DNA of 63,924 nucleotides, filler included, from Asterionella formosa (taxonomy: Eukaryota): NCBI GenBank assembly GCA_002256025.1. It is 13 parts of 13 records of this genome, joined end to end, with 100 filler letters (N's around TTAATTAATTAA, not from the genome) between each part and the next. Parts side by side here need not be neighbours in the genome. Positions count along the whole stretch, not along the records: positions 29,574 to 34,401 come from NKIB01013337.1; 12 more parts are not named here. One strand, given 5' to 3'. Both the position numbers and the translations under genes were made by a program. The first letter of the stretch is position 1; each line of letters begins with the position of its first letter. A model generated the notes under the pieces. That model was not told where the DNA came from, did no database searches, and saw only the letters and a list, made by a program, of their open reading frames with translations. Of this stretch, positions 1,210 to 63,924 are shown in pieces.

Positions 1210-1649
1210 TGTCTGATGATGTTCCATACATGCGCCGTACAAACCATACCGGCGCAACCACCAGATTAGGTACATCCGTGAGTGAGAGCTAACAACGATG
1301 TACTTGAAACAACAATACATAGAATAGTCATAATATAGTAATTCCCCATTATTCATGACAAGGTTCCCTCAACAGAACTACAATATCTGTTCTCTCTCCC
1401 TCGTCCGCACCTGTGATGTTGCGGCTCGTGTCGGCGGTGCAAACCAGCACTGTTTTTGACACGCAACTGTGCAACACCAATTGCCTGTTCGCTTTCCCTG
1501 TCTCTCGGGCCTTCTTCCGCCATTGCGACTCCATTCGTTTCCGCTGTTTTTCCAGTCCCTCATCCGCTCTTGATGCCGATCGAGGGCACACCTACAGCCC
1601 TCACTGTAACCCGCCTTCGCAAGGAAATCTTCGCCAACGCTCGCTCTGG
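1210..1649 (+). mobile_element. 5' LTR (1210-1374) plus leader and gag N-terminus of a CoDi-like Ty1/copia element, truncated
   Basis: TG...CA ~165-bp LTR (TGTCTGATG...CCCTCAACA). It is homologous to the reverse complement of ~32197-32633. The gag start PHPLLMPIEGTPTALTVTRLRKEIFANARS matches the contig-7 copy. Confidence 0.8.
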
Positions 1650-4937: not shown

Positions 4938-6215
4938 ATTTCTACTTTCTCAATTGAAGTAGATGATGAACCTTTGTTTACCTGTTCCCTCAATCATCCA
5001 ATTTTGGCAGACAATATTCAATATCCTCTGGATTATAACTCCATACATGATAGACAATTGCTGGCTATACAATTGATTCTCAATCAAACAAACCAAACAC
5101 ATCCGTTAAGATTTCCCTCTATCAATTTTCATCATATACATTTAATATATTTTGTGAAGAATCCAGGAGATACTTGACGTATTGTTATTCCTACATCACT
5201 ATCGAATCCTATTATTTATTGGTATCATCAGATGTTAACTCATGTGGGTATGACAAGATTAAATGCCACAGTTTCTACACATTTTTACTATCCTCCATGA
5301 AAAGCAAGAGTGGAACATATTGCAAGCATATATGAAACATGTCAAAACGTACAAAATTACCTTGTGCTTGGTTTTGGTGAACTTCCACCAAGGAATGCAT
5401 TGTTATTACAATGCTCAGAAGTCACAGTGGATTTCATTGGTCCACGGAAGATAACAGTGACTCCACAAGCGATTGAATTTCATGCTCCAACTTGAGTTAA
5501 CACAGTCACCAATTTACCAGAAATTTCACATATCGATAATAAGACATCAGAATATATTGCGATGAAATTTAAAAATGATTGGTTAGAAAGATATCTCCGT
5601 CCAGAAGGTTGTATACATGACAATGGAGGTCAATTTACTGGTATTCCTTTCATACACATGTAAGTGGCTGTTGAATGGAATTAAAATTGGGACCATTACA
5701 GTCAAGAATCCACAAACAAATGCTATCCGTGAACGTTTACATCAATCTATCAGTAACAATCTATGTACGAGTTATGTTAAAGGCTCATCCTCCAATCAAG
5801 GAATTTCAAGTTCAGAATATTGTGGATACCAGTTTGCTGCATCATATGCAGCTCGAGCTACTATTTATAGTACATTGTGTATTTTCACCAGGAACATGGA
5901 TTTTCCAACATGATTTGATTACAGATATGTAATTGATATTGGGATATCAATGTCGATAAGTGATAATTGACAAATGACTACGTCGTGATAATTTCCGTCG
6001 TCGTTCTTGCAATTACAAGGTTGTTGATGAGGTTTTAATCCTATTGGATAATCCTACTACCTTGGATAACCATGGACGAGGTCCTTATTCTATTATTCAA
6101 GTATATGCCAATGGTACAGTTACTTTTCAACAAACTATGCATACTACGGAACGAATTAATATTCACTACATCAAACCTTTTCAAAGGTAAAAGGTTTTCC
6201 CTTGGTGTGGGAGAG
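4938..6215 (+). pseudogene. Degenerate Ty3/gypsy integrase region followed by a polypurine tract
   Basis: Fragments WYHQMLTHVGMTRL (zinc-finger region), VTVDFIGP, CIHDNGGQFTG and NPQTNAIRERLHQ (DDE core), broken by stops and frameshifts. GGTGTGGGAGAG lies immediately before the LTR. Confidence 0.85.
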
Positions 6216-14703: not shown

Positions 14704-14803
14704 NNNNNNNNNNNNNNNNNNNNNNNNNNNNNNNNNNNNNNNNNNNNTTAATTAATTAANNNNNNNNNNNNNNNNNNNNNNNNNNNNNNNNNNNNNNNNN
14801 NNN

Positions 14804-16085
14804 TTTTTTTTCAGAACACACCATTTTGTCTGAAGAAGACCAAATGCCATTTCTATTCTTATCCTTAGCTGTGAAAGGAAAAAGTTAAATGTATCCTGTG
14901 TTGGATCATCACGTTGTGAGCCAACAAAGGGAACAAGCATTACATCAGACAATGTGTAAGCTGCATCGCCGACCAGATAAAAACCTGTGTTGAATGCTGC
15001 AACTCGATCGAAAATGGAAATTCGTTCAAAAGCTACTTGGTCACTGCATTTTCCCGGTGCAATTACACCAAAATAAATAAATCTTGAGTCAGCATCACAA
15101 ACAGCCTGGACATTGATTCCATAAGTCATGTAGTGACCGGAAAAAAATGAACCAGGGTTGTTGCCACTTTCAACTATAGTCGGGCGGTTGATGGTGGCTA
15201 GGAAGCCGTCAATAGCACCAACACAACCTCTCATCATGCCCTCTGAGCTTTTGCATTCAAAGCTGTAAGCCAATTTGATAAATTCTTCTTTTTCTTTTGG
15301 AAAAACAATTTCGAGTTCTCCACAGTTTAGTACAGCATCAATGAACAAATCACGACATCGATAAAGTGAAGCATGATGAATGTCGATGTAACTGCCACCA
15401 GCCAGCCATCGCAAACCAATGGCTACCACAATTTCGGGAATTATGGGCTCAGAAGTGCCACATTTGGAATAATTCCCTGCAATCTGAATTTCCAGCATGG
15501 AGGTGAGTTTTTTGAATGCTCTGTGTGACATTCTGTATGTCTTCTCGAAAGCAATTTCGTGATTGAGTTTCTTGACATGTGATTGCCAGGAGATTCTTTC
15601 GTGGTGCCACTTGTGCCTTCGTTGTCGTCGTCGTTCAGATGACTGAAACTGACGTTTACAGCGTCGCCTTTGTCGTTTGGATGAGTGTTCTTTTTCCGCT
15701 GCTTCCTTAGCTAAATGACAGAGGAAGAAGAAATCAAGATCACTACTGTCATCGTCATTATCATCAAGTAAATCAAATGGCGACGACATGATTCATGCAA
15801 ATGTGTGTTTTTAATATAATATTTAGTTTCCCGGTAATTATATTTTATGTTGTTGCTTGATATCAAGACCATCATTATATTCCGGAGGGATATACACATG
15901 ATCTTCGCCAGCCAGTTGCCGTTGAAGATCCATGTTACTCCATGATACAATGTGATCACAAATTAGTGATACAGTGACACTTTTGGAATGAATGAAATTC
16001 AGTTCAAATCGAGTTACCGTTGCTGATACATTTTCAAAAAAATTCAAATTCCGTTATACACGAAAAAAAATGATAAGAACAGCCC
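14804..16085 (-). mobile_element. PIF/Harbinger transposon: DDE transposase ORF 15789-<14804 and a probable terminus at ~16085
   Basis: GCVGAIDG, INVQAVCDADSRF, YLVGDAAY and RIRIEMAFGLL motifs. The end GATAAGAACAGCCC is followed by TTA. Confidence 0.9.
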
Positions 16086-24544: not shown

Positions 24545-24959
24545 NNNNNNNNNNNNNNNNNNNNNNNNNNNNNNNNNNNNNNNNNNNNTTAATTAATTAA
24601 NNNNNNNNNNNNNNNNNNNNNNNNNNNNNNNNNNNNNNNNNNNNACTTGTACGTAAACGAAATTTCGAAAAGTCAAATGAATTATTTGAAACATCAACTA
24701 ATTCAGTCTCGCGTTCAAAATTCATTGTGAAAACTTCACATGAAGCAGTTAAAACTTCACATGAAACCGTTAAAAGTAATCTTTTTTACGTGAAGAGTGG
24801 CATTAATGCATGTGAAGTACCACATAATTAACACTCATACGTAGACGAAATTTCGAAAAGTGGCGTATTTCGCGTCTTAGATGTTGTTGGTGACGGCGAC
24901 TTTCAAGCAGCCTTGGAGAGAAAGAGAAGCCCTCCCTGGATGGTCTCCTTTGACCGGAA

Positions 24960-27190
24960 GATATCATGAAAATATGATCAAGGGTATCGTACGCTAAGTG
25001 GCACAGGATTTTTGCATGTACGATAGTTTTTCGATCAAAATAATGATCAATGTATCATATAATTTTATGATCATGCAGTTAACTTTTACCGAGCTTGAAG
25101 TATGATGAGACTATCATAGTTATAATACCATTGCATCATATAATTAGTTAAACATGGTCATATGATGTTTATACTTTTGTCATACATCTATCTTAGCATG
25201 ATCGTAATTCTCATCGATATCACTGTCTAAAATAGGATGAAATTGATCGAAATATAGAACTATTTTTAGCTAAGAATGGTTCTATGATTCTATATCTTAA
25301 GTGGCTACAGAATGTTCTACAATGCTCTCATCGCAATGATTGTTGGTGCCGCTTTCACTTCCACCTTCCCCCCAATCCAATTCTGAAGGTTGTTGTACTG
25401 GTTGCCTTGCCGTTGTTCCCCTGCTTGCTTTGTTCCATTTAATCCTGAGGGTTCTGAGTTTGCATTCACGCACGATTGAATCCGTTTCGTTGTTCCAGTC
25501 AGCCATACTAACAAAGAGAAGCAATTCATTGTTAGCTGTTCAAGTTTTGCTACACAACAACATGCATTTCGCTTCTATCTTGCTTCACTTACCACAAATT
25601 GAGGAGGTAACTGATGCATATTTCTGTAGAAGAATATGTCAGTCGAAGATTGAATGAGAAGCAAAGTATCGATCAATAAATGGGCTCCAAAACTGCTGTT
25701 TGTAACTTACAAATACTGTTTATCTACCATTATCCTGAAAGAAGCAACACATATGTGTCAGTTTTTCTAACTGTTGTAGATTGATCCAAAGATGGCTGAT
25801 AGGCAGAACTTACTGATTTCTTTTGTCCACATTGATGGTTGGCCAGCCACCAAATCGAAAAGAAGCTATTGAATCACTGAAAGCAAGGGGACAAGTCATT
25901 CCGTATTTGTAATCCCAGCAATTGATCATCTTGGCATTTGCTATTGACAAACCGTGATGCTATGCCCAGCTTGTTGATTCCGCCCTTCTCCGTCATATTC
26001 ACTCATTCTTATCGTGCTGTATTGTCACTTCAGTTTTTCGTATCATGTGTTGCTTGAGATCCTTCATTTCAGGAAGTGGATGCAGCATGACAAGCAAGGA
26101 ACATGAAAGGCATTTGCTCTTGACTAACCATCAATTGATTCCGCCCTTCTCTTCTAAGCCGCAAGTATCATTGTGCTGTATTATCACTTTCGTTTTCCGC
26201 GTCATCATCTGTGTTAATCCTTCATTTCAGGAGCAAAGTGTATGTACGACAAGGAACATGAAAACATGATTTCAAATGTTTCAGCCATGAATACATATAT
26301 ATAAAGATTTCTAAGAAGTTTAAATGTATATATAGTTGAACATTTGCATAGCTTTAAACACGCTCATTATACGGCACATCCTGTGTATACTAATATCAAT
26401 CTTGATTATACATGACTCAAATAGATACAATGCATGATGAGTTCATAGTCTTCCATGACCTGTTGAGTTCTTTCAATTTTTTGTGTGTCAATTCTTGTAC
26501 CTACAAGTCAGTGGCTGATTTAATTAAGCCCCCTAATAAACGGGAGTCATCACCAATTTTTCAAAATGGTCGAAATCATACATTTGTGTATATAGACATA
26601 TTGACCAAAATTCATATGGCCTACTGGTAGTACTGTATAATTGCTGGTAATTACTTCCATCGTGGAATTACCACAATAGTGCAGTGGAAAACTGAATATG
26701 CTCATGTTTTTAGGATCATTTGATCATATTTTTAAGATCAATTGATCCTGATTCCTGAAAATAAATGTTGATTGTTCATTTTCTCATCAACGACACCGTT
26801 CATCATATGATCAATACTGTGCAATGTAGATGATGATTTATCGAAGACATATGATGACTTGAACGACAAATGAAGATTTTATCACAAACAATTGTTCCTC
26901 TTGACAAGGCTGGTGGTTTGTCGTTGTTGCAAGAATCAAAGTGAGGACTGGCGAGGATGATGAGCCAAACCACATAACTCTAACTGGTACATTATCCTAC
27001 CAAGAAATTTAAATAAAGGAACCTAAAGGAAACAATACATATAATAATTAAATTTCCATAGTCAAAAGGGTTACTATTTAAATTACGAGGGCATTTATCA
27101 AAATTATTAGATGATATAACGAAAAATTATGATCAGATGATCATAATCCTATGATGCATCATGGAAATATGATGGTTTTTATTTGCAGAC
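24960..27190. mobile_element. Non-autonomous DNA element of the GTCTGCAAATAAAA TIR family, copy 1 (outer ~15 nt of the left TIR missing)
   Basis: Ends TTTTTATTTGCAGAC. 25730-26830 matches the reverse complement of ~43190-44251, and 26920-27190 matches 41206-41480. Confidence 0.8.
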
Positions 27191-28123
27191 CCTATTGGCT
27201 GCTACACTATGATTGGTAGGGTAGCCAGCAAAGCGCTTCCTGGCATACCAAGCCTGGGTTTTTGCGAGTAAGACTTACTTATATAATGCACTGTTATTTA
27301 TGACTGTAAAAATTTGTGTTTTTGTTGACCAATTTTGGTAAACCTGGTCAACACAAACACAAATTGTTGGGTTATGGGCACAACGATTTGTGCTATAATA
27401 CACAAGATATAATAATTTTTTATTTTCAAAGCGCGCCCAATAATACATCCATAAAATAATTAACATTTTTATACTGCATAAAATAATTTACATATATCTT
27501 CTTACTCGGTGTTGTATTTTTTTCTTGATTTGGGGTAGAATGACTAATATATTCATACACTTGAATATATATCACTCTCCACTGATGATTGGAACCATCA
27601 TCTGCCATCCTCACTATGATCTTTTTATGCCTCTAAATCCTCCAGGAGAAGTACCTATTATGTAATTTATTACTGTTTTCTAGTCCACTTCGAATTATTA
27701 CAATAACGGGTGCTGGTACTCCTACCAAGATGGAAGGCGTAGTATGTCCAACGAGCAAGAGGAAAAACCTTGTCTTGTTTGCATTGGCTTACGTTTAGTG
27801 AAAACATGGGAGCAGTGCCCTGATTAAGATTGACAAGGTAGTGCAAATGAATGGAAATATCAGTAATACTGATGCTTTTATACGCGATGTACTAATTGTA
27901 CCCATACTTATAATCAGTACTTCGCATCCCGCAGAATTCTGTATCCTGCACCTAGAATTCATGGATGTGCACTGTCTTGCTCACAGAAAGTCTCTTGCAC
28001 ACTTATATATATTTGACACTCTAAAATAATTTGGGATATCAAGATCTGCAGTGACAGTATCAATATCGGAACATGAAATGACACCAAGCTCATGGCATTC
28101 TGGTAATAGAATGCTTCCCTACT

Positions 28124-28390
28124 AGTTTTTTAGCGTAGGTGAGTCCCCAACCACTTTTCGCTAAAAGTGATTGTTATACCCACAGCGTTAGGGGAAATTC
28201 CAACCGCCAAGGAAGGCAGCACAAGCTGCTTGTAGGGGGCAAACCCACTATTTCTCGCACACCAGGCAAGACCGTGCGGGATGGAAAGGAGTGTGGGAGT
28301 CGAACCCAACAAATTGCTTTTCAAAAAATTGCGGGAATCGAACCAAACAACTTCAGATCAAAGGCAATGTGCTCAGCCACCCATCTACTG
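28124..28390 (-). mobile_element. Candidate tRNA-derived SINE
   Basis: The minus strand has a degenerate tRNA-like head, two B-box-like motifs (GGTTCGATTCC, GGTTCGACTCC), a ~150-nt body and a short A-tail. Confidence 0.4.
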
Positions 28391-30169
28391 CAAGCCATTT
28401 CCTTAGTCTTACAGCACTTAATATAAGTGAAGTTATTTTTTTAAAATTAATTATTTAGGTCAATATACCACTAATTCTATAGTAGACATTACAATCCAGT
28501 TTCATCCTCTTCTTCTTCAGATGATGAGGTTTGGTCATGAGAAGAGTCTTTAACATCAGCAATGATTTAACTATTGATGCAAGGTGCTTCATTTCTGTTA
28601 CTGTACTGAAAATATGACTAGAATACATGCACTCTCAAGTGGAACTCTGTCCCTCTTTACTCGCTGATGTCCTCCAGCATGTTGGTCACTTTGCAAGATG
28701 AAATCGACACACCACACTCTAAAATGATGTGAAGTCGAAAAAGCTTTGTTAAAGAACTTGTATCTGTAATTGGAAAGCATATTTGAGTCCTTCAATTTGG
28801 GCTGTAGCCTTCAAATGATTAATAAGGATATGCATTATTTCCTGGAAGCAAAGGCTGTCAAAAAATTATGTGAGTAAATTATAGAAATATAAATGACAGC
28901 AACAACTGGATGAATAATATTGGATGGTGTGCACCATTAAGCAATACACAGCTGTGTTGATGCTCTGGGATTTTTCATAGTTTTGGCCTAGCAATGTCTT
29001 CGCTAGTGGACGAAGAACCGGGTTTGCCAATCACTTCATCGTTCCTGCCACAGTGTGGCCTGTGATCGAAACTGACGATGTCGTCATTTCTGATGATGCG
29101 CACTACATTGTACCTGGTACCTGGTACCATTCTGAGGAGATGAGAATTTATTCTCACACGGAACAAAATTAGTAATAATTGATTAAAGTTCGGCGCGACG
29201 GCGCAGGTCCGGAACAAGATTCTTCGCTTAGTATACCTACCTGTACTCTGTATACCGATACAACCAACTTTTCCGAGTGATTCTCACAATAAAAGGACAA
29301 TAAAAACTTTAGGCACAACAGGGACAAAGGCTGGCGAAATCGATAAAAATGAAGTCTTTTGCCTTTTACTTTCATCTAGCAATAGCTGCAATCTGTTGGC
29401 TCAGTGAATCAGCACTCGCATATTCATTCTCTTCGTTTCTTGGCCGGTCATTGGCATTGGAAGCATGTGCGCANNNNNNNNNNNNNNNNNNNNNNNNNNN
29501 NNNNNNNNNNNNNNNNNTTAATTAATTAANNNNNNNNNNNNNNNNNNNNNNNNNNNNNNNNNNNNNNNNNNNNTTCGAAGGATGGAGAATGTTTAAGGTA
29601 ATGAAGCCATCAATGTGGTACTTGGATGACAATCGTTGGGAGGCAGGCAGCACAACAACAAATTGTTAACTAAACGCACATTTCCTTTTTTCTCAGTTGA
29701 TTCAACAGCTCGTTTTGCTTGTTGGGGAGCACCAATGTAAAACAAAACAAAACAAAACCAAATTGCGTAAGTGCTCTTGTCGCTCGTTGGACCTATTCAC
29801 TTCTGTTGGAACAAAACTGACAAAACATTTACATTCTCTCAAAGTTAAGCTGACAAAAATTAACCGGTAAGTTTTATTCGACAACATTGGATACCCGAAA
29901 CTTACTTATTCAAGAATTTACTGACAATTTACTGTAATAGACTTATGCATCAGTTGCATTGACTTATGGTAAGTGAAGCAAGAGGATACAGTGGAATTGT
30001 GTGTTGTTGTGTCAATGTAACATGACAAGCTAACAAATCATTCCTTCTCATTGTTACTGTAACTGCATGCAATGGACAATAAAACCAATCAAACAACGGA
30101 ATAGTCGGTGAGTTCATAGTGTCACTAATTGCAGGGAGAAATGCGAGATATTAAGCACTGCATGGCGCA

Positions 30170-30913
30170 AGATTCAGAATAGAGGAAGGAAAGGGCGAGA
30201 CAGGATCAATATACATTGAGCCGAGTAGAGAGAGAAACGTTGGGTTGCTGGCCTGTAGAATCATAGATAGCATTGCTAAATTTGTCAATTAAATTAAGAT
30301 CTGTTCCAATCCTTTTTTAACAATCAAAACAACGGAAGAGTCGGCGAGTAAAAGAGTCGCAACCATAAGTTGGCGTTGCCTCACACATGATTCAGAATAG
30401 AGGAAGGAAAGCGCGAGACAGGAACAATATACTTTGAGCCAAGTAGAGAGAGACGTCGGGTTGCTGGCCTGTAAAATCATAGATAGCAATGCTAAATTTG
30501 ATAGTTAAATAAAGATCCATTTCAATCCTTTTTGAACAATGCTTGTGATCAGAAATATGATCATGTTTAAGATAGATATACGATGAAACAATTCAAATGA
30601 TAGCATATAGTTTAGCTGATTTTAGGATGCATTGTAGTTATAATTTACATCGGGCGATCACGAGAAGTGAAAATAATATGAGAAGGTTTATGATATTGAC
30701 GAGAAATGTTGTTGATCAGTTTATATACATTGTGTGATGATAATGCTCCTATTATCATTATACTTCAAGGTCGGTAACATATTAATAAATCATCATAGAT
30801 ACAAGATACCTTGATCATATTTTTGATCCAAAAAGACATATATATGAAAATCCTGTGCCACTTGGTGTATGATACCCTTGATCCTATATGCATGATACTT
30901 TTTATTTACAGAC
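30170..30913. mobile_element. Diverged end of the GTCTGC TIR family, abutting a copia pol gene, with an internal ~150-bp duplication (30171-30324 / 30389-30540)
   Basis: TCCTGTGCCACTT..GATACCCTTGATC..TTTTTATTTACAGAC matches the reverse complement of 24960-25010 and also 63085-63148. Confidence 0.65.
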
Positions 30914-32633
30914 GAATGCTCAATAAAGAGCAGTTGTGCAGACCAGATACAATGTGTACATGACAAGCAGCAGAAAAAAGCATAGGTAAAGATAATTCGG
31001 CCTCATGTGTAGATTTAACATGGTGGCCGTTAGGAAGTCGAATGGTGATAGAGTTGGTGCGTGGCAGGTTGTTTGTTGATGACGGGTAAAAAAACAGTGG
31101 CATAATTGCCAGAACTACCAGAATCAGCAATGAGTGTGATGGGGGGACAAGTGATGGGAGATAAGTTTGTGTCAATAGTATTATCGACAACAACTTGCTC
31201 CCCTCCACATCAAGCATGTGTTGAAGGTTGCGGTGAAACACGGGGTGGCCGGGCGGGACGGGTACCATCACTGAAAATACGGATGCTGCCACCCATACGT
31301 CGATCAAGGGTGGCAGTGATCTGATGGCCAGAAGCTGGATGATTGCAACTTGTACTGGTATGTTCAGGGTTTTTGGTGAGACCATGAGGAGTCCAACAAT
31401 AGCCTAATTGGACATTGTTGTAACTGTATCCAGAAGGGACAGCACAAGCAGCTGCAGCAATCCCTGGCGGAGGGGGAGTTCCACTGGTTTGAATGGCAGC
31501 ATGGGCAGCATGGTAACCGGTGGTGGCAAGGCGCAATCGTTCCTTATCGGTGTGGATGAAATGAGGGCAAAAATTAATCCAGGTACAGTCCATCTCAGCG
31601 CGATCACGCCAGCTTTGAATACTATGAGAATATACACCAGCCTGTTCTAAAGTGGAAAGAGTCAAATGCATGACAGTACTGTCAGATAAAGGCTCCCCAC
31701 CAGCATCGGCAATGGCACGAAGATGATTAATGCGGACCCATGAATGTTAAAGAGGTTCCTCTGGTGTCCAAGCATCAGCCAAATGCATGTGATTAAATTC
31801 TAAATCATCCGCACTCAAAGTGGCATATGTTGAGTCTAAGTGAGCGAGCAAGGTCATAACAGTCCAAAACGTTGTAGTAAGTAGGGTCAATGACGGTGAG
31901 AATTTGTTGCTGGAGAATTTCACGGATTTGGTAGTAATGGCGGAAGGCGTTGAGGGAGGTGTTAAAAAGACGGTGGGCAGCTGTGATTTGGGACTGTGTG
32001 GCAGTAATACTGTGAGGCGGCTGGGTGCCGGGATGTTCGGGCGGTAAAAATGGTTCACCAGCACATAAGAGATAAGGAGCAGCAGCCATGACAATACCAA
32101 GGAAACCATTGTCACCACCACCACTGGTCCACATAAGGAGCAGCAGCCATGACAATACCAAGGAAACCCTTGGCACCACCACCACTGGTACAGTGAACAG
32201 AGCGAGCGTTGGCGTAAATTTCCTTGCGAAGGTGGGTTACAGTGAGGGCTGTAGGTTTGCCCTCAATCGGCGTCAAGAGCGGATGAGGGAATGGGAACAA
32301 CAGCAGAAACGAGTGGAGTCGCCGTGATGGAAGAAGGCCCGAAAGACAGGGAAAGCAAACAGGCAAGCGGTGTTGCACAGTCGTGGGTCAAAAGCAGTGC
32401 AGATTGGCACTGCCAACAAAAGCTGCAATGGCACAGGTGCGGACGAGGGAGAGAGAACAGATATTGTAGTTCTGTTGAGGGAAACCTCATCGCGGATAAA
32501 GGTGAACTACAATATTATGACTATTCTATTGCTGTTTCGAGTACCTTGTTGTTAGCACTCACGCATATACCTATTCTGGTGGCTGCTCCGGTATGGTTCG
32601 TACGGCACATGTATGGAGAATCATATTCAGATA
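30914..32633 (-). mobile_element. Degenerate CoDi-like copia element: LTR 32633-32473, gag, protease
   Basis: gag motif EIYANARSV..GGG.KGFLGIVM, knuckle YCWT(P)HG..HTSTSC...GHQ..AT...MGGS, protease IADSGSSGNY and IRLPNGHHVKSTH..LLSI. Frameshifts plus a ~58-bp internal duplication. Confidence 0.88.
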
Positions 32634-32849
32634 TTAACAGTAGGTACCGGTATGTGTGCTTAGTGTAGACTTTTTTTAATACTGCTGACCCCTCCCCTCT
32701 CCGTTTCTAGTTGTCTCTATTCACATGTTGCCTCTTTATACGATCGGGAGAGCTATTTACAGTATATAGCCTAGCTACTTTTTCTTCGCTTTTTGAAATG
32801 AAATTCCAAGGAGGTTGGGAACCACAACAAGGAATAATGTTTGCCAAAC

Positions 32850-33840
32850 CGCCTGGATAGCCCTAGGTGTGACACCACGGAAAAACGCAATGTAGCTCCT
32901 CCAAGAATTGCAATTCAAGACGTTCCACCTCATGGCCCCACCCCTTCCCTCCTTCCTCCTCCGCCCTCCGGCACCCCCCACCGCCTTCCCTGCCCACCCC
33001 ATCCACCCACACCCAGTCCACCCACCCCTCAACCTCTGCCACCCTCATTAGCGACACCTCGTCCATTACGGGACCACCAGCCACTATCACTTCCACCGCT
33101 ACCCCTCGCCCCACCAAAATTGTGAACCCGGCCATCAACCCCGCCCTCAACGCCCCTTATCTTGCTTTCAACACTGCCGGCGGTCGCATTGGTGATGCCA
33201 AACAAAAAGCCCGACCACCAACCAACGCAACAGGAAAACCCATGTGCATCTCTTATCACTCCAAAGGTGACTGCGTCTCCCGTTGCCGCTGCGCTCCGGA
33301 TCCTGCCCCCCATTCGCTGGCGGAGGACGCCAAACTCCAAACCTGGATTGAAAAACACATGAGAGTCCCCCTCCAAACATAACACTTTGGCCGGGCCCTC
33401 ACTAATGAGGTCCTGTTGCCACCACACCAACCCCCACCCCCACCCCCATCCCTGGCCCTCCCCACCACGCGTCCCGACTCTACCACCTTTCCCCCCCACC
33501 CCCGGCACCATGACTACAATCGGCAAGTTTGCCGCACTTTTTGCCCGCCAAATTTCCAACTGGGGTTGGCGAACGTTTGTCCACTCCCGCCGCAGCACCA
33601 GTGACATCAACCCTGCTGTGGCCACCCTGGCACATCCAGCCGCTCGCCTCCTTAACCACCTCCGCCTCCGAGGAGCCCCAGTAGTCCTACACACCACCCC
33701 TCCCCCCCCGCTCTCCCCCCCCAGCATGCCATCCTCATGTCCCAGGGCCCCCATAAATCAGCCTTTGACCACCTCGCCTTTCTCAGCCAGGAATTCCAGG
33801 GCATGATCACTTAGGGTTTTGGGGTAGTCATACCTTACAC
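32850..33840 (+). mobile_element. Fragment of a DIRS/Ngaro-like (tyrosine recombinase class) retrotransposon: gag end and pre-RT region
   Basis: C-rich island. Cys/His knuckle MCISYHSKGDCVSRC, then HPAARLLNHLRLRGAPVVL and GPHKSAFDHLAFLSQEFQGMI*GFGVVIPY. Confidence 0.65.
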
Positions 33841-39428: not shown

Positions 39429-39860
39429 CCAATCCCAGATTGATGCATCCCAATAATGTGTCATTTGATTTTTCTGATCCCTGCAAGGCTCCACAACCGT
39501 CTGATGTCCGTTCAGAATTACACACCGGGAGTTGGTGGATTGACGCTCAAAACTGTCTGTGAATTCAACCCAATGATTTTCTCGTCCCTCTAATGTTTTT
39601 CATTGATAGAACACATACTGTAGAAAATTCTAAATTCACCATGGAGCCAGTTTTGTTTTCTCTTGGGATTTTCCGTACAACTGTAAGGAACAAAGTCATT
39701 GCTTGGCGCCCCCTTGGTCTAATACCAAAACTTGATGGTCAGAGTCTTGCATTGAACAAAAATATGACTGCCGACGATAAGTGCAAGGATTATCACACAA
39801 TTTTGGCAATTATATTGTCGGGAGTTCAAGAGACTCAGAAATCTGGTGGCTTCATTCAGC
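39429..39860 (+). pseudogene. Plavaka-type transposase fragment
   Basis: ELHTGSWW, VPLMFFIDRTH, EPVLFSLGIF, AWRPLGLIP and YHTILAIIL motifs, with an internal stop. Confidence 0.75.
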
Positions 39861-40320
39861 TGGCAGCTGAATGATATCAAGATAGAAAAGTAGTTTGTAA
39901 GTGCATACAGAGAAAGGCAAAGAAATAAACAATACGAACATACGAAGAAAAGCGCTGACATTTAAGGTTTGAAAAAGACACCCATTCTTGGTTGAGTCGT
40001 GAATTTTCTTTCACATGAGACTATAGATTGGAAAGGAGGTTGAGCTGAGCGAGAGAAGGAGAATCTCTGAAAGAAGAAAAATCACATCAAACTTACCATG
40101 AAGAGGCCATCATAGTCATTGTGAGTTTTCGTTTCAGCATGATTTTACAATTATGTGGTGCAAGATTGACGATAATAACATATTTGTAATAAATTAATAT
40201 GGGTGCGGTCAATTGTGCTCATTTCATGATACAATGTACCAGATTATCGGTACCAGGTACTGTAAAATGAACACACTAAAATCCTGGCATGTTCTGCAGT
40301 GTTGTACGAGTATGCAATAA

Positions 40321-41122
40321 GGCCATTGCTAACGGTGGACCAAAACGCCAACCAAACAGTGTTTTGGTTTCGGCAACCCTAAAAAAACGATGCTATCGGG
40401 TGTGAAAAAAACAACGCAAACGCATAACATTTAGGGGATTCCGTGCCCATATCCCAATAAGTTACCCAAACGCATTACGTTTAGGTATTTTTCTTCCAAA
40501 GTTACCTGAACGTAGGATTCCATATTGACTACTTTGAATGTAGCCACTAGAAACCCAATTATAATCGTCATAGAATCACTACATATAGGATGCATCATTT
40601 ACATCATATATTTATACAACGATAGCTATATGGTACTCTAGTACCAGGCACCAGGGTACCCACTGGCAAGAACAACAACAATAACAGCAACAACAACAAA
40701 TCATCGCTGATTTCACCATAATCAACATGTCGTCAAATCCTCATTTCACCAACATGGCACACATGTTGTTGTTGTGTACCCGGTAATATGTACTCGGAGT
40801 ATAGTACATTGACAACACTATAGTATATATACATACCAGTGTGTAGTTGGATGACAACACAGCAGCATCGCTCAAATTGTGGGAAAAACTAACTAATTCC
40901 CAAATAGGAATAATAATATTTCATTCATAAAATTAGTCTAATAGAAAAATTACTTTTTTAAATTGACTTTGTCATCCTATATCACAGTAGATGGGTGATT
41001 GACAACATTTAGGATTTTCCAAAAACCGATAGCATCGTTTTTGCGTCAGTCTGACCAAATCCAAAAACCAATCTAAAAATAAGTTTTTGGGTTTTCGTTT
41101 GGGTCAATGGTTAGCAATGGCC
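40321..41122. mobile_element. Tourist/Harbinger-like MITE
   Basis: TAA|GGCCATTGCTAAC ... GTTAGCAATGGCC|TAA, plus the subterminal inverted repeat AAAAACGATGCTATCGG / CCGATAGCATCGTTTTT. Confidence 0.88.
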
Positions 41123-41205
41123 TAAGGACCTCCAATTTTACCACCACTCTTCAACGGCGCACCACCAGTAATAAAAACATAAGGAAAATACGTATGGATG
41201 TATTT

Positions 41206-44200
41206 GTCTGCAAATAAAAGCCATCATATTCCCATGATGCATAATAGGATTATGATCATCTGATCATAATTTTTCGTTGTATCATCTAATAAATTTGATA
41301 AATGCCCTCGTAATTTAAATAGTAACTAAATTTTGACTATGTCTATTTAACTATTATATGTATTGCTTCTTTTAGATTCCTGTATTTGAATTTCTTAGTA
41401 GGATAAAGTCGTACCAACTAAAGAAATGTGGTTTGGCTAAACATCCTCTCCAGTCCTCACTCTGATTCTTGCAACAACGACAAAGCTGCCATGTCGAGAG
41501 GAAAAACCCTCGAAAAAAGCACTACTTTGTTGATGTTCATGAAAAGCCAGACACTTTGGCCTATCGCCCACCACCAGCCAGTATATACTTCAAAAATGCT
41601 GTAAGATGCACAAGTTGAATGCCCATTTATGGATTCAAGTTCCATGTTCATGAAAAACCAGACACTTTGGCCTATCGCCCTCAACCAGCCAGTATATACT
41701 TCAAAAATGCAAGAAACACAGGTTGAATGCCCATTTATGGATTCAAGTTTCAGTAGTGCAACAATGTAAAATATTAGAAACCGGAAGTCACATTTCATCT
41801 AATTACGGTTTTCATTAGCTATACTAGCTAGAATTGATTGAGAGGAAGCAACGGTAGAATGGCTGCCAAACGGGCGGGGGCAAATACAGAGAATCCTACT
41901 AATTTTTCTCCCCAATGATCCCAGTCCCTTTTTGAATGTCACTTGCTACAGAAAATGTAGAACAGCCGCCATGATCTGTTGATTGTTGCTGTATGGTGCC
42001 ACTGAGGACCAAAACCTCCAGAAATCTCAATGAGTTGATTGTTTCTTGACTTGAATGCCAAAGGGATCAAAAACAGTGGAAAAAGCAAAAAGGGAACTAA
42101 AAATTCTCTGCAACATCAGGGCAATTGTGAAAGAGAAATGAAGTTTCTTGGGAGGAGAAGTAAAGGGATAATTGCTTCTGGTCTTGCGGAAACAAGTAAA
42201 AAAAATGACCCAAACAATATTGACACATAGGTACTACCTACCGGAAAAAGGAAGCAATGCTTTCGGCATCATCAATCTATACACAAACCTGCGCCAACTG
42301 ACGTCAATATAGCTACCTCGACTTCATCAATGAAGAAGTTGATGGGCGGAGCATTTGAGGAAAATCGGGGTTGAGGTTTTCTTGACGCCAACGTGGGCCT
42401 GCTTGGCTGAACTTGCAGATGAAAGCATTGAGTAACCTGGGCCTGTGAAGCCAAAGGATAAAGAAAAATCTATGACAAGGCTGGTGAGATGATAGTGTTT
42501 AGGAGGGGGGAGCAAAAGTTATCATATCTGAACGCATTCGAACATTCGTATACACAATAAATGGTGGCATACCAGCATGGCCGCTCTTGGCTGACAGTTG
42601 CCAATTCAAAGTCAATGTACAAATACAACAAGGGTGCACAAAATATGGTCCCATTTTGATCGACTGGCTGATGCATAGTTTTGAGACTCACTGTTCTGCA
42701 ATGGGGTGGACTTTGATCATTGCTTCGTTCGAAGCACAATCAATTCGAATGCTGTCCAGTGAAACAGCCAATGAAAACAATTGTGGCGGCGAAAAAGCGC
42801 AGAACAGATCAAGAGATTTCATGGGAATTAAAGTAACAGGGAAAATATGATGCACTGCTCCTTGTGTAGACTATATTTGATCATTTCCATGTTTCATTTA
42901 CAGGTTCATGGATGACTCCTCCCGCCCATTCATTAGATATGCAGCCATGTTGCGATATTTCTACCGGACCTATAGGATTGGTAGTTTGGTGGTCATCATT
43001 TCCGCATTCTATATACCACCAGTAGGAGTCATGTATGCATGCATGCTGCGATAATTCTTACAGGACAAATAAATTTGGTAGCTTGGGAGTCCAAGTAATC
43101 GCTTCCGTATTGTATACAGGGGTGGGGGTTGCATGCATGAACATTTACTCCGGTATAAACCATGATCTTTCATCAATAAATTTTGATTCGTTCATCCTAT
43201 ACCTTTGATCATAACATATTGATCATATAATAAATGGTGTCGTTGATGAGAAAATGAAAGATCAAAATTTATTTTCAGGGATCAGGATTAATTGATCTTA
43301 GAAATATGATGAAATGACCATAAACACATGAGCATATTCAGTTTTCCGCTGCACTATTGTACTAGTACTCCCATGATAGAAGTAATACCCAGCTAGTATA
43401 CAGTACTACTGGTAGGCCATTTGAATTTTTCGAATGTACCGGTATATGGTCAATATGTCCATATTCATAAAAGTATGATTGAGACCATTTGAGATTTTTT
43501 GATGACTCCCGTTTATTAAGGGGCTAAATTAAATCAGCCACTGACTTGTAGGTATAAGCAAGAATTCACACAAAACAATTTGAAAATTTCAACAAGTCAT
43601 GGAAAAATACTATTTACTCATCATGCATTGTATGTATTTGAATTATGTATAATCAAAATTGATGTTAGTATAAACAGGATGTGCCATATAATGAGCGTGT
43701 TTAAAAATATGCAAATGTTCAACTATATCTACATTTAATCTAACAAATCTTTATTTATATGTATTCATGGCTGATACATTTGAATTCATGTTTTCATGTT
43801 CCTTGTCATGCATTCACTTTGCTCCTGAAATGAATGATCATCACACATGATGACACGGAAAACGAAAGTGATAATACAACACAATGATACTTGCAACTGG
43901 CTTAGAAGGAGTTACCACGGAGAAGGGCGGATGCAAAAAACTGAAGTGACAATACAACACGATGATACACCATGCGGCTAAGAAGGAGTGAATATGATGG
44001 AGAAGGGCGGAATCAACAAGCTGTGCATAGTAGCACGGTTTGTCTAGAGCAATTGCCAGGATGATCAATTGTTGGGATTACAAATATGGAATGACTCGTC
44101 CCCTTTCAGTGATTCAATAACTCATTTTCGATTTGGTGGCTGGCCAACCATCAATATGGACAAAAGAAATCGGGAAGTGCTATCATCTTTGGATCAATCC

Positions 44201-44251
44201 ATTTCTGTTAGAAAAACTGACACATGTTTGCTGCTTCTTTCAGGATAATGG
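41206..44251. mobile_element. GTCTGC TIR family copy 2 (inverted relative to copy 1), with ~1.7 kb of extra internal sequence
   Basis: Starts GTCTGCAAATAAAAG and is homologous to copy 1 at both sides. A ~105-bp duplication lies at 41534-41750. Confidence 0.8.
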
Positions 44252-49340: not shown

Positions 49341-49390
49341 TGTTGAGGGGAGCCTTGTCATTAACAAAGGTGAGCTACAATATTATGACT
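49341..49390 (-). mobile_element. Short LTR-end fragment of the same CoDi-like family
   Basis: TGTTGAGGGGAGCCTTGTC...GAGCTACAATATTATGACT matches 32473-32522 and starts exactly at the LTR boundary. Confidence 0.7.
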
Positions 49391-59010: not shown

Positions 59011-60499
59011 NNNNNNNNNNNNNNNNNNNNNNNNNNNNNNNNNNNNNNNNNNNNTTAATTAATTAANNNNNNNNNNNNNNNNNNNNNNNNNNNNNNNNNN
59101 NNNNNNNNNNAGAACGAAAACCAGTTGCAATGGAACGCTCGCATGTGAGGTCTGGAGAAGTTGCACAGCTTGATCTCGGTGGCCTTGTCATCTTGGTCAG
59201 AGTCGACCTTGCATTTGTAGGTTTGGTACTTCTTCAACTCCATAGGCTGTAACGTGCAATCAAGGTTTCGGAAACAGGGAAACGATGTGAGTTGAATTAT
59301 CACTAGAAACACATCAAACCCCTTACCACAATTTAAATTGCCTGATGTAGGATCAGTAGCTCCAGAGCTCTCCAGTCAATGACTTACAGCTCCAGTATCA
59401 ACTTCAGACATTTTAATAGTGTTTATTAGTGTCTCCAACAAAGAAATGTGAGACTATAACATCCAACCTTTATTATTAGACGCTATTCACCACTTCGGGG
59501 CAAATTTCTCCTGGATTCTTGATTGTTTCTGGATGCCGGTAATTTCATGCATAAACATATACCGGTTGGAATATATAAATATGTATTTTATGCTTATGTA
59601 TAGATGTGAAAACAGCAGTCATTGTGTGTTTGTGTTCACACAACAATTCATTCCAGGTGCGTGTGAGCGACCTTCCCAACTTCCCAGATCCTTCCGAAAA
59701 CGCACAAGGGTAATAATTTATGTAGGCACTTTGTAGCACGTACCGGTGTACATAAATTTGATTCTTATACATCTGCCTATTGCCGTCAAGAATGTGACGA
59801 AAGGCGCGGCATCATACTCCGGCACATACCGGTATCCTTGTAGGGGTCAGATTAGTTACCGTGAGCGTGTCCTGGAGTCTACATACCGGTAAATAAACTA
59901 ATGGATATACCGGTATGTTGAAAATCCATACCGTTAAACGTAGCACTGCGTAGTGAGCATCGGTATCATTAACTTCGGGAACCAAGAAAAGCACTGCCGG
60001 TATGTGTGAGAATCGCGAAGGTACATACCGGTACATATGAAGTACGTCTAAACTGTACTTAGCCGCTACCGGCAGTTCCCTAATACTGCAGATACCGTAG
60101 AATACTCGACCCATTCGATTGTCATGTTACTTAAACGAACAATACCGTATACTGTACTTGGTAATCCTCGATCACATAAGAACGCATACCGGTATAACGG
60201 TAGGTAATACGTCTTATGTGTACGTCGTCCTCGTATGTCTACATATTTTTTGGGGCTGTTCCAAGGCGCCAGGAGAAAACCCATCTGGCCGCTTTGCCTG
60301 CCTGCCTCATCGATGTTGGGTGCTTGGGGGGCATCATGGGAGAATTCGAACTCCTCACACCAGTGCACATAATCAGGAATGGTTTTTAAGCACCCCATCA
60401 TCCATTTATGTCGCTCCTGGTGTCCAGTGAGGCACCCCACCCCTTCACCTGGGCGAGTTAGTGTGAGACTGTAAGGAATGTTCGTCGCCACGTGCGTCG

Positions 60500-61030
60500 A
60501 AATTAGTTACAATGAGGAAGTCAACCTTGCTCGTGACATCAGAAATCGCTGGTTGTTAGACAACGGTGCTACCATTCACATCTGCACGGACGTGCGCATG
60601 ATGGAAGACAAGAAACAAGTGAGTGAAACGGTCGTGGTAGGGAATGGAACTGAGATAGTATCAACTGTCTCTGGTACCGTGACCCTGACGACTATGGACG
60701 AAGGAAAACGCTTGAAACTCAGCGATGTGCTTTATGCACCGGAGTTCAAGTAGAACATCATCAGTGTCTCTAGAATGATCGACAAGGGTAATCAAGTGAT
60801 CTTCGAGGACGATAGGATGACGATACAAAACAAGAGCGGCTTTCTGACCTGCAAAAGAGACAAAACGCGAAAACTCAGAGTAATGTATCATGTCGAAGGT
60901 AATCCGATCATCAAGCAAACGGTGATGGAAGTCGAGCAACTACAAGAGAACACTACACAACAATTGATCGACGAATACAACGAAAACGATTGGACGAAAG
61001 TTGAAGCAAAGACGGGAAGGAGTACGAGAA
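60500..61030 (+). pseudogene. Copia protease-region fragment
   Basis: WLLDNGATIHIC, VVVGNG and LSDVLYAPEFK*NIISVSRMIDKG. Confidence 0.8.
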
Positions 61031-61257
61031 CTTTCAACATATCTGTTGGTGATGAAGGGGATGCAATAACACTTTCTCGTACAAACAAGGTGACATAGGT
61101 ATCTATTGTCACCTCGTACTCAGGCTACAACACATTCTTGTACAGACAACAAGGTGACGACATTTGTATTGTCTATTGGTGATGGAGGGACGCAAAAACA
61201 CGTTTTTCTCGTACAAACAAGGTGACATTGATATCTATTGTCACCTTGTACTTAGGT

Positions 61258-61565
61258 TAAAGTAAGATCAAACGAGCTAAAAGTTGTTACCTGTGTTCTT
61301 ATTTATTGGTAATCATATCTAACCAGAAAGTATGATCTGTAATTTTTTAGTTGTAAGATATATTCATGTTGAAAGTAAGATCAAAAAAGCTAAAAATTGT
61401 TTTCTGTGATCTTATTTATTGGCAATCATATCTAACCAAAGTATGATCTGTATTCTTTTAGTAGTAAGATGTATTCATGTTAAAAGTAAGATCAAAAAAG
61501 CTAAAAATTGTTTTCTGTGATCTTATTTATTGGCAATCATTTCTAACCAGGAGGTATGATCTGTA
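61258..61565. repeat. Tandem ~112-bp repeat, about 3 copies
   Basis: AAAGTAAGATCAAA..GCTAAAA..CTTATTTATTGG..GTATGATCTGTA occurs three times. Confidence 0.9.
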
Positions 61566-61599
61566 AATCATAAAGATTGATTCGAGCAATTCATCTACT

Positions 61600-63148
61600 G
61601 GTTAATATTTTATGATTTGTACCATATGAAATTTCTTGTATGACTCCCGCTAATTGAAGGGCTTAATCAAATTACTTACTTGTAGGTACAAGAATTGATG
61701 CGGAAAAATTCAAAGACAGTACATCAGGTCGTGGAAAGCAATGATATCCTCATGCATTGTATATATTTGAATTATTTATAAGCTTAATTGATGATAGTAT
61801 AAACATTATGTCTATATATTTATATGTTTTAACATTTTTATAAATGTATATATAGCCTATACATTTGAAATCATGTTTAGAGGTTCCTTGTTATGCCTAC
61901 CGGTACCACATGATCCTGAAATGAAAGATAATCTCTGCCCTGTGACAAGCAAGGAAAACTGAAAGAACGACGCTTCAACGCACACAATGATGATAAACCT
62001 TGCGGCTTAGAAGCAAGGATTGAAAATGGAAGAGTGAATGGAATCTAGCTATGGTATGTCAAGATTACATGCCAAGGTGATCAATTGTTGGGTTCACAAA
62101 GACAAAATGATTGCCTTTTTCCCTAGCAAATCAAAAGCACATTTTGCATTCAGCGGGACACCACCAATGTCGACCAAAAACTTGTAAATGCTCCTGTTGA
62201 ATCAATGAGCCACTGTTAGAACATCACTGACACATGTTTGTTTTCAATCTTTCAGGATAATTTTAATCAAAGAGTTTTGTTGTAAGTTATAATGACATTG
62301 GTGGAATGGTTTGTTGATTTGTACTTATGTGATCATTGACTGACACATTATTTTACTGAATTATGCGATAAGTTCATCGATTTCTGGTAAGTGGAGCATG
62401 CTAAGAAAATGGGACTGCAGTGTTGAGATATAAACAAAACATGGCTAACGAGCAAGTAATTCCTTCTCATTGTTATTTTAATCAGGAAATCAAAATAGAT
62501 AAAACAGAATCGGATCAAAAGGAAATGGGATTTGCAGCTTGTAGTCAGATGAGTTTCAGAATCTGAGTGAAAGGGAGGTGGGAGGCATGCATCAAGAGAT
62601 TTGCTTGAAGGCAGGAGGCAATTCATCCTCAAGAGCATTGAAGGGAAGCGGGGGAGAGGCAGGCATCCTCAAGAGCATTGAAGGGAAGTGGAAGGCATGT
62701 ATCCTCAAGAGCATTGAAGGGAGTTGGGGAAGACATGCATCCTCACGAGCATTGAAGGGGGCGGGAGGCATGCATCAAGAGCATTGAGACAAGAATAGAA
62801 AAGGGGAACATTGGCTGTTTAACCACACAAAATGTAGAAACATAAAAATGATTTCGTGATATAACAGTAAAATTACAATCCATTTCAACCTATTTTTAAC
62901 AGCTATTTCAATTAGAGTTACCATCAAATAAGGCAGGATAGGTATATGATAAAAGAATATACATCATAGGATAATGTTTTGATAATTATATGGTGGTTTG
63001 ATTATTATGAGTAAGCTTAGCCTGTTCACTGTCATAGTATGCATTTATCATACATCTAACGAAATATGTATCATGCACAGAAAAATTTTGTGCCAGTTAT
63101 CATATGATACCCCTGATCTTATAAGTATGATATTTTTTATTTGCAGAC
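61600..63148. mobile_element. GTCTGC TIR family, diverged copy
   Basis: Similar to 43490-44250 (TGACTCCCG..ACTTGTAGGTA; TGACACATGTTTG..TCTTTCAGGATAAT). Ends TTTTTTATTTGCAGAC. Confidence 0.7.
62575..62790. repeat. Minisatellite, ~35-bp unit containing CATCCTCAAGAGCATTGAAGGG
   Basis: About 5-6 imperfect copies separated by short purine-rich linkers. Confidence 0.85.
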
Positions 63149-63924
63149 GTAGGTTTGAAGGCAATCTGAGAATGTGAATGCCATTGGGACCAAACCTTAT
63201 TTCACTAAGTGACAAAGGGCCAATTCAAAAGGAACTACCAAATAGGCAGCACATTAGTGACTAACATATCGCCTGCAAATCGACAAACTTTTTTTAATTG
63301 CAATCACAGGTCAATTTTTTGGTCCTCACTTAAACAGCTTCCTTCGCCATCTACCATGGTAAATCTCAGAACTGAAAGTCTATCCACTTCACAAACGTTG
63401 AGAATCAGAATGCCACAATTGAATAGAAACGAAACTCCAGAACTTGGACGTGTGTCACAAAACAGAACTCATGAACAAATGACTACTTCGGGCAGCACTC
63501 ACAGTCGACATAATTGACAGAGTTTCAATTCATATGTTGAGAGGGGTTTGTAAATCGAAGAGGAAGGCGTCAATAAAACTGGTTCAAAAGGTCTACATCC
63601 AGAGTGCTTCTCTATTCCCCATCAAAGCCACCAAGTCCTGGAGGAAGGAGAAATAATACAATAGTCTTGGCAACCATTGCGCGTGCAATATTGTGTTAGT
63701 CTACTTGAACATGAACTTGGAATGCGCAGGAGCTTCTATGGGTCATCAAACTTTAGGCACTTATATCTCAAGTCCAAACTGGAAATAACATAACAAAAAT
63801 TGGATGGACTAGAAATGACAGTTGCTGACTAAACAGTGGCCTAACAACAATCACAAAGAAGCTTCCATCAGTGTTTCTTCAAGGGTTCCATCACATCTTT
63901 TTCCAGGGAATTGGGTCATGGTAA

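Follow-up and report, generated by a model that had tools for sequence, protein, structure and literature searches.

What primes reverse transcription in a Ty1/copia element when the place of the primer-binding site (PBS), directly past the 5' LTR, is taken by the reverse complement of a stretch of that same LTR? Textbook accounts give Ty1/copia elements as tRNA-primed, and the hemiviruses (copia, Ty5, Osser) are examples of priming by a tRNA or an internal tRNA fragment. A sequence-only reading of DNA from Asterionella formosa had noted such an arrangement and proposed that this diatom copia family self-primes, on the premise that copia elements normally use tRNA primers. The premise agrees with the ICTV profile, which in the part available describes Ty1/copia elements (Pseudoviridae) as tRNA-primed (PMC8515867), but it calls for a qualification, since self-priming has already been predicted for the plant TAR lineage (PMC6317226, available part). 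Self-priming LTR retrotransposons are already known and a copia precedent has been predicted in plants; the mechanism itself is not new.

The window, the whole stretch of DNA analysed here, comprises 63,924 nt and consists of 13 contigs of ~4.8 kb apiece with N44-TTAATTAATTAA-N44 linkers between them; it is not continuous genome. The pair of complementary 12-mers is located in contig 7 (29574-34401) on the minus strand, the sense strand for the element. For this family the window contains one copy (contig 7) and two fragments (contigs 1 and 11), and no intact copy or LTR pair was found within the 63,924 nt. ARAGORN detected 0 tRNA genes in the window, and there was no Rfam match at E<=1 in 32150-32700.

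A perfect inverted repeat spans the LTR-leader junction of contig 7

A repeat search returned a perfect 12-nt inverted repeat, 32461-32472 against 32504-32515, with 100% complementarity and 31 nt between the arms, exactly as the sequence-only reading had described. Read on the plus strand, 32461-32472 is ATATTGTAGTTC and 32504-32515 is GAACTACAATAT. In sense (minus-strand) order the junction runs ...AATAGTCATA ATATTGTAGTTC, then 31 nt ending in CCCTCAACA, then GAACTACAATAT and CTGTTC.... The 5' LTR of this copy occupies 32473..32639 on the minus strand (167 bp; sense TGTTAATATC...CCCTCAACA). The putative PBS (32461..32472, minus strand, sense GAACTACAATAT) begins at the first base past the LTR, at LTR end +1, and does not open with TGG. 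Its perfect complement, the LTR-internal arm and proposed self-primer (32504..32515, minus strand, sense ATATTGTAGTTC), lies inside the same LTR, and we propose that it sits at or near the 5' end of the transcript. The loop from primer arm to PBS (32473..32503, minus strand, 31 nt) is the rest of the LTR, presumably the remainder of R and U5.

A fold-back complement of at least 12 nt within 250 nt upstream was found at 1 of 4548 contig-7 positions, which is the site itself. Shorter inverted repeats, of 8-9 nt, are frequent by chance in such regions. Among the 40 differences listed for four public runs, with 180 further differences beyond these, no majority variant falls in either arm, and three majority differences fall in the loop. 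The loop of contig 7 also contains the TGAGG-GAAA-CCTCA hairpin that had been pointed out in the sequence-only reading. This small hairpin is present as described but is not conserved: T is the majority letter at 32488 in the four runs, and the hairpin is absent from L001, a near-intact relative described below.

The extent of the LTR was determined from three observations. A TGTTA start lies 167 nt ahead of the PBS, the homology of contig 7 to contig 1 starts near 32624, and the depth of contigs from public run X1 drops ~1000-fold to the right of ~32645, marking the outer LTR end. The depth drop and the position of TGTTA together indicate that the contig-7 LTR is 32473-32639. Its 3' end is backed by the fragment in contig 11, in which the homology stops at CAACA.

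The contig-7 element is a decayed member of a divergent diatom copia family

The contig-7 element is decayed and broken; what is left is a gag-protease fragment from a divergent family of diatom Ty1/copia elements. Leader and decayed gag occupy 31213..32460 (minus strand) and contain several frameshifts; comparison with L001 showed that the gag start codon has changed from ATG to ACG, and sequence comparison also revealed a 61-nt tandem duplication in the decayed gag region (~32072-32195, minus strand). In a tblastn search the gag of L001 matched contig 7 with 81-88% identity in four pieces lying in different frames. Between gag and pol there is an in-frame TGA (31210..31212, minus strand), a layout shared by 7/7 related loci examined. 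Pol begins with a frameshifted protease region at 30909..31209 (minus strand; from the ORF list and the comparison with L001), which carries the motif LIADSGSSGNY. The similarity ends near 30915. In many contigs from public runs the match reaches 30912-30915, beyond which their sequences vary, and this indicates that another, high-copy repeat ends there.

The fragment in contig 1 (1216..1648, plus strand) comprises part of the LTR, the leader and the gag start. It covers the only 435 bp that contigs 1 and 7 have in common (1216-1648 against 32198-32624, 85% identity). Its arm (1333-1344) and the 12-mer at the PBS position (1375-1386) are complementary at 10/12 positions across a 30-nt loop, in agreement with the geometry given in the sequence-only reading. 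That reading had counted two LTR-plus-leader copies; both do contain the junction, but contig 1 holds just a 435-bp fragment and contig 7 is frameshifted and cut near 30915. In contig 11, ~50 bp of a related LTR 3' end (49341..49390, minus strand) include an arm homologue at 49372-49383 that matches the contig-7 arm at 11/12 positions, so that the LTR half is kept here, as had been claimed. CAACA ends at 49341, and the unrelated flank past it is not complementary to the arm.

Parts of the stretch were present in 20 runs from 17 studies among the matches listed, mostly labelled as freshwater or algae metagenomes, and 12,512 contigs of run X1 alone aligned to 30800-32900. The family is thus very abundant in at least one algal sample, which gives it practical relevance for diatom repeat annotation.

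No Pfam match at E<=1e-3 was obtained with the window's gag and protease ORFs; the classification of the family therefore rests on L001 and its relatives. L001 was retrieved from metagenome contigs using a pattern of LTR end and leader in which the 12 PBS bases were left free, a search that gave 3 rows from 2 loci. The second locus, L002, was rejected as a chance match, there being no similarity in its surroundings. L001 is a 5810-bp marine metagenome contig of the same family as contig 7, assembled with its LTRs collapsed into one (392-bp terminal overlap). It is near-intact, with gag at 98-1291, an in-frame TGA and a 1377-aa pol. In pol, the protease motif LIADSGSSGNY near the N-terminus is followed by the integrase-associated SH3_retrovirus domain (441-497) and by RVT_2 (914-1030), after which RNase H-like motifs were read by eye from the translation. 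The domain order of L001, PR-INT-RT-RNase H, is the copia order. RVT_2 matched 34/37 aligned relatives at E<=1e-3 (best 2.7e-10), and its score in L001, 20.9 bits, is under the 31.6-bit cut-off, which indicates that the clade is divergent. The named relatives come from the diatoms Fragilaria crotonensis, Cylindrotheca closterium, Nitzschia inconspicua and Fistulifera solaris.

Searching for related loci with a single pol protein found none in viral contigs or genome contigs, while an alignment of the pol relatives used as query gave 11 loci in genome contigs and 0 in viral contigs. The 11 loci are diatom copia contigs mis-binned into bacterial metagenome-assembled genomes (MAGs). Five loci (L004, L005, L008, L011, L013) were left out as they had no LTR-leader junction. 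When the MAGs behind the loci were searched again, with gag and with a motif of polypurine tract and LTR, only the known contigs and one gag fragment without a 5' end were found. The comparison set that resulted covered seven families and nine LTR-leader junctions, namely those of contig 7, contig 1, L001, L003, L006, L007, L009, L010 and L012. The pol proteins of L003, L006, L007 and L009 share just 40-48% identity with that of L001.

The LTR arm and the PBS covary across families

Covariation between the two 12-mers had been set as a check in the sequence-only reading, and because the window holds one copy and two fragments only, relatives from public contigs were needed to examine it. Pairs of arm and PBS were computed by script; a MAFFT alignment of the nine arm-to-PBS stretches was dropped as the basis for pairing, since differing loop lengths put the arms out of register. 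In L001, arm and PBS are identical to those of contig 7 (ATATTGTAGTTC and GAACTACAATAT; 12/12, loop 31 nt in both), and the two copies differ at 5/31 loop positions and at 0/24 arm positions. In contig 1 the arm is ATATAGTAATTC and the PBS GAACTACAATAT (10/12, loop 30 nt). L010 has a compensatory double change relative to contig 7 and L001, in arm (ATAATGTAGTTC) and PBS (GAACTACATTAT) alike, that leaves the pairing at 12/12 (loop 30 nt). The arms of L006, L003, L007 and L009 are each unrelated in sequence, have loops of 40-95 nt and still pair with their own PBS: AATCGAAATAGTC with GACTATTTCGATT in L006 (13/13, loop 46 nt), ATGTAAATC with GATTTACAT in L003 (9/9, or 10/12; loop 40 nt), TTTGTTGGCAAC with GTTGCCAACAAA in L007 (12/12, loop 89 nt) and TTAGCTTTGTA with TACAAAGCTAA in L009 (11/11, loop 95 nt). 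The L012 junction is ambiguous, with 10/12 complementarity, 8 perfect pairs and a loop of 40 nt.

Complementarity of at least 10/12 was thus observed at 9/9 junctions, in all seven families, compared to 0.4-1.5% of random positions. Perfect arms of 9-13 nt are present in 7/9 junctions, the other two (contig 1 and L012) having 10/12; perfect arms of 11-13 nt are present in six junctions from five families, which represent four unrelated sequences and one compensatory double change. In a cross-matrix, each PBS matched its own LTR at 10-12/12 positions and the LTRs of other families at 2-9/12. In contig 7, L001, L010, L006, L007 and L009 the PBS ranked first among the fold-back sites of the entire locus, and in L006 it was the sole such site among 17,181 positions. 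The 3' arm starts at LTR +1 in every family. Complementarity, position against the LTR end and covariation are direct observations.

These data bear on whether the arms might be complementary by chance, or through an artefact of assembly, in what is a decayed repeat copy. The window copy is indeed degenerate, the mismatches in contig 1 (10/12) are uncompensated and repeats of 8-9 nt are common in such regions. Against this, only the site itself, among 4548 contig-7 positions, has a fold-back complement of at least 12 nt, the pairing recurs in independent assemblies and runs, and it occupies the same place in 9/9 junctions examined. Given the rarity of such fold-back sites and the complementarity of at least 10/12 at all nine junctions, we regard chance as excluded for practical purposes and the artefact explanation as very improbable.

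LTR ends are set independently of the repeat in four sets of junctions

Self-priming predicts an arm directly adjoining the LTR, so the exact position of the LTR end is important. In L001 the same LTR as in contig 7 comes after the polypurine tract GGTGAGGGTG. More generally, in the family of L001, contig 7 and contig 1 and in L006, L007 and L009, the LTR terminates in TCAACA, the mirror of its TGTTGA/TGTTAA start, and this start comes after the conserved polypurine tract GAGGGTG; the complete arrangement, GAGGGTG directly followed by TGTT(G/A)A...TCAACA, was found in L001, L006 (5' LTR only), L007 and L009. The mirrored termini after a polypurine tract set the LTR end independently of the inverted repeat in these cases. 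L003 and L010 are partly circular evidence because their LTR ends (CAATA and CTTTA) were placed using the repeat itself. For L001, L003, L007, L009, L010 and L012 the LTR was taken from assemblies in which both LTRs are collapsed to one, no 3' LTR was found in the 162-kb contig of L006, and the junction set includes no true LTR pair with a target-site duplication.

A tRNA primer or a purely structural stem is an unlikely alternative

In the first alternative to self-priming, the primer bound at the PBS is a host tRNA, or an internal piece of one, and the match to the LTR is secondary, for example as an anti-PBS stem that masks the site. The wider group speaks for it, since the ICTV profile, as far as available, gives the Pseudoviridae as primed by host tRNA, usually initiator tRNA-Met (PMC8515867), and several copia lineages are known to use half-tRNA primers (PMC6317226, in part). 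The junctions themselves speak against it. As the sequence-only reading had stated for the window copies, the sequence after the 5' LTR is not TGG...; no PBS begins with TGG, which excludes a tRNA 3'-CCA end as primer. Six families have different PBS sequences, each matching its own LTR, so that a tRNA explanation would call for a separate fragment in each family, along with an LTR match that is coincidental in every case. The arm also abuts the LTR end exactly, as expected for the 3' end of a primer. Taken together, this makes priming by a tRNA or a tRNA fragment quite unlikely. A set of 27 distinct tRNAs (G001) was rejected as a host set, being bacterial (GC 52-69%, with encoded CCA); its best match to the PBSs was 8-9/12, a comparison that is void for host priming.

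RNA folding closed the terminal stem in 7/7 sequences folded (z -1.5 to -7.1), although folding by itself cannot separate a primer duplex from a structural stem. In some families a small stem adjoins the duplex. The second alternative is accordingly that the stem is a structural part of the leader RNA, with a role in packaging, dimerisation or translation control or as a U5-leader stem, and that priming uses another primer. Retroviruses provide a model for this, as their U5-leader and U5-IR stems surround the PBS, and the fungal copia element GalEa has a conserved hairpin in place of the PBS, whose function is unknown there (PMC5445492, available part). Against this, the diatom elements have their 3' arm at LTR +1 in every case, and none of the families has a further candidate PBS past the LTR. 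In 5/7 families the 5' arm sits shortly past an initiator-like motif, and the geometry matches that of Tf1 as described in the available text of PMC7175516. We therefore consider a solely structural role unlikely.

The initiator-like motif is TCAH(+1)W, a consensus proposed for diatoms (PMC4686930, in part). In 5/7 families TCAHW was found in the 12 nt that precede the LTR arm, compared to 5.5% of background windows (binomial P for at least 4/7 families, 2.7e-4), and its +1 base comes 2-9 nt before the arm; the two remaining families carry CCAHW upstream of the arm. In contig 7 the motif is TCATA and its +1 base is 2 nt upstream. This lends indirect support to the suggested placement of the arm at the transcript's 5' end. 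A contig from an RNA library run (X5) spans 32373-32525 and so extends 10 nt past the arm; contigs cannot show RNA ends, and this one fits equally well with U3-R of a 3' LTR or with DNA carry-over.

Self-priming as a model for the family and its possible extent

Collectively, these comparisons suggest that Tf1-like self-priming is probably the best explanation for the family of the contig-7 element. The proposal of the sequence-only reading is supported by the comparative evidence from nine junctions, including the compensatory double change in L010 and the unrelated but pairing arms of L006, L007, L009 and L003. In this model, the LTR would hold the transcription start, either at the 12-mer ATATTGTAGTTC or a few bases ahead of it. 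The 12-mer would fold over the 31-nt loop and pair with the 12 bases right after the LTR, a step that has the observed complementarity and geometry behind it. By analogy with Tf1, RNase H would then cleave where the duplex ends, and the freed 3'-OH would prime minus-strand synthesis, with the last LTR base as the first base copied. Plus-strand strong-stop synthesis would copy the RNA primer back into the PBS, so that the arms would stay complementary in new copies. A difficulty for the model is that the window family keeps just 31 nt for R and U5 after the cut, which is short. Further points against it are the complementarity of just 10/12 in contig 1 and L012 and the just nine perfect pairs in L003.

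A broader reading is that self-priming is general throughout a clade of diatom Ty1/copia elements, with an origin independent of Tf1/sushi gypsy elements and of plant TAR copia elements. We regard this as possible but lean slightly against it. The clade concerned is the group that dominates diatom repeat content. If the broader reading were true, the U3/R boundary and the transcript start of such LTRs could be read from sequence alone, the replication cycle itself would keep the arms complementary, and host controls acting via tRNA primers or tRNA-derived fragments would leave the elements unaffected. If self-priming were shown for copia elements of diatoms, the self-priming lineages would number three, the new one being distant and in the stramenopiles, and priming independent of tRNA would look either ancient or easy to evolve. 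A sequence-only rule for annotation would also follow, in which an LTR end is followed by a PBS whose reverse complement lies in the LTR just past an initiator motif. With standard tools that seek tRNA-type PBSs, such elements would be missed or misjudged. No report of self-priming in diatom copia elements was found in the full-text literature searched.

Comparison with known systems

Self-priming is established for the Tf1/sushi group of gypsy elements, including Tf1 and Tf2 of S. pombe, and to our knowledge it has been shown experimentally in this group only. The diatom elements can be compared with this group and with three sets of copia elements. The CoDi elements of diatoms, described by Maumus et al. 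in 2009, are Ty1/copia elements with the order PR-IN-RT-RH, LTRs of 153-844 bp with TG/CA ends, and at most one stop or frameshift from gag to pol; PBSs are not discussed in the main text of that paper as far as available (PMC2806351). The window family fits this description, on which the comparison is based, in its domain order, short LTR, TG/CA ends and gag-pol layout.

Like GalEa with its Conserved Hairpin Site, the diatom elements are copia elements that appear to lack a tRNA-complementary PBS and have a self-complementary motif at the PBS position. In GalEa this is a local palindrome downstream of the LTR, and no complement to it was found in U5 or the LTR according to the available text (PMC5445492). 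In the diatom elements, by contrast, the partner sequence is inside the LTR, 30-95 nt upstream. A closer parallel is the plant Ty1/copia TAR lineage, with Houba and Osr-1, for which self-priming has been predicted from sequence (PMC6317226, in part). The diatom family is likewise a Ty1/copia family that lacks a tRNA-type PBS and for which self-priming is predicted from sequence. The two were compared by description only and differ in their hosts, TAR elements being from land plants and the relatives of the diatom clade from Fragilaria, Cylindrotheca, Nitzschia and Fistulifera.

In Tf1, an 11-nt complement of the PBS lies within the element's own LTR-derived RNA and makes up the mRNA's first 11 bases, and RNase H has been demonstrated to cut between bases 11 and 12 (PMC7175516, available part). 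As in Tf1, the diatom PBS lies directly past the 5' LTR and is complementary to the element's own LTR, here through arms of 9-13 nt; a tRNA-type PBS is lacking, and a small stem lies by the duplex in some families. The loop of the diatom elements, in contrast, spans 30-95 nt, and their transcript start and RNase H cut are inferred only. The two groups also differ in their coding regions, which have the order PR-RT-RNase H-INT in Tf1/sushi gypsy elements and PR-INT-RT-RH, with an RVT_2-type RT, in the diatom element. An integrase-associated domain ahead of RT places the diatom element outside the Tf1/sushi lineage, so that the likeness between the two would be one of mechanism only.

Gag and pol of the copia elements lie in one frame around a single stop codon

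A single TGA or TAG divides gag from pol in the window copy and in all seven related loci examined, with both genes in one frame. In the window copy, which lies on contig 7, this stop is at 31210-31212 on the minus strand. It is found at 1289-1291 in L001, a near-intact relative on a marine metagenome contig, and at 1372 (L003), 6869 (L006), 1206 (L007), 2551 (L009), 984 (L011) and 567 (L013) in the related diatom copia loci. A G-rich motif follows 6 nt 3' of the stop, reading GGGGAG in five of these eight copies and GGGA in two; it is absent in L013, the remaining one of the eight compared. The shared frame, the lone stop and the G-rich motif downstream suggest programmed stop-codon readthrough. 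For diatom CoDi copia elements, Maumus et al. (2009; PMC2806351) describe at most one stop or frameshift between gag and pol.

The polypurine tract and LTR start overlap the end of pol

The polypurine tract and the start of the LTR, GAGGGTG-TGTT(G/A/C)A, are kept across families. They were located at 5300-5312 in L001 and at 5305, 5451, 1195, 829 and 813 in L003, L007, L009, L010 and L012, respectively. This segment sits within the pol reading frame, where it codes for the C-terminal GEGVL that is conserved in the alignment consensus. In L001, L003 and L007 the two ends of the contig overlap exactly, by 392, 141 and 141 bp, respectively; the assembly presents the element as a circle carrying a single LTR. 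These circles represent either two collapsed LTRs or genuine one-LTR circles.

The window copies are decayed

The copia copies in the window are all dead. Comparison by reading revealed ATG as the gag start codon of L001, whereas contig 7 has ACG (about 32326-32328, minus strand) and contig 1 has ATT (about 1513-1515, plus strand). Transitions account for most differences between the window sequence and the matched contigs from public sequencing runs. The contig-7 gag also contains a tandem duplication of ~61 nt (32072-32195); contigs of runs X2, X3 and X5 skip 60-62 nt there, indicating other copies without the duplication.

Within 30800-30941, a distinct repeat with the deepest coverage of the contig-matched stretch comes to an end at 30912-30915. 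Numerous public-run contigs match as far as 30912-30915 and beyond that diverge into varied sequence. This repeat truncates or interrupts the contig-7 copia fragment.

Elsewhere in the window, contigs 6 (24645-29473), 9 (39429-44251) and 13 (59111-63924) have other repeats in common at 66-87% identity, which by tblastn were unrelated to copia pol. Contig 12 carries a 488-bp tandem repeat (99% identity), and the contig 4 ORF at 14752-15792 is a DDE_Tnp_4 transposase.

Diatom copia elements occur in prokaryotic bins

The contigs of L003-L013, many of ~5.1-5.9 kb, are diatom copia sequences sorted into bacterial MAGs of several phyla, and one homologous protein (P0024) carries the NCBI label Marinobacter shengliensis. 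The diatom copia elements in bacterial MAGs reflect contamination of prokaryotic bins by eukaryotic repeats.
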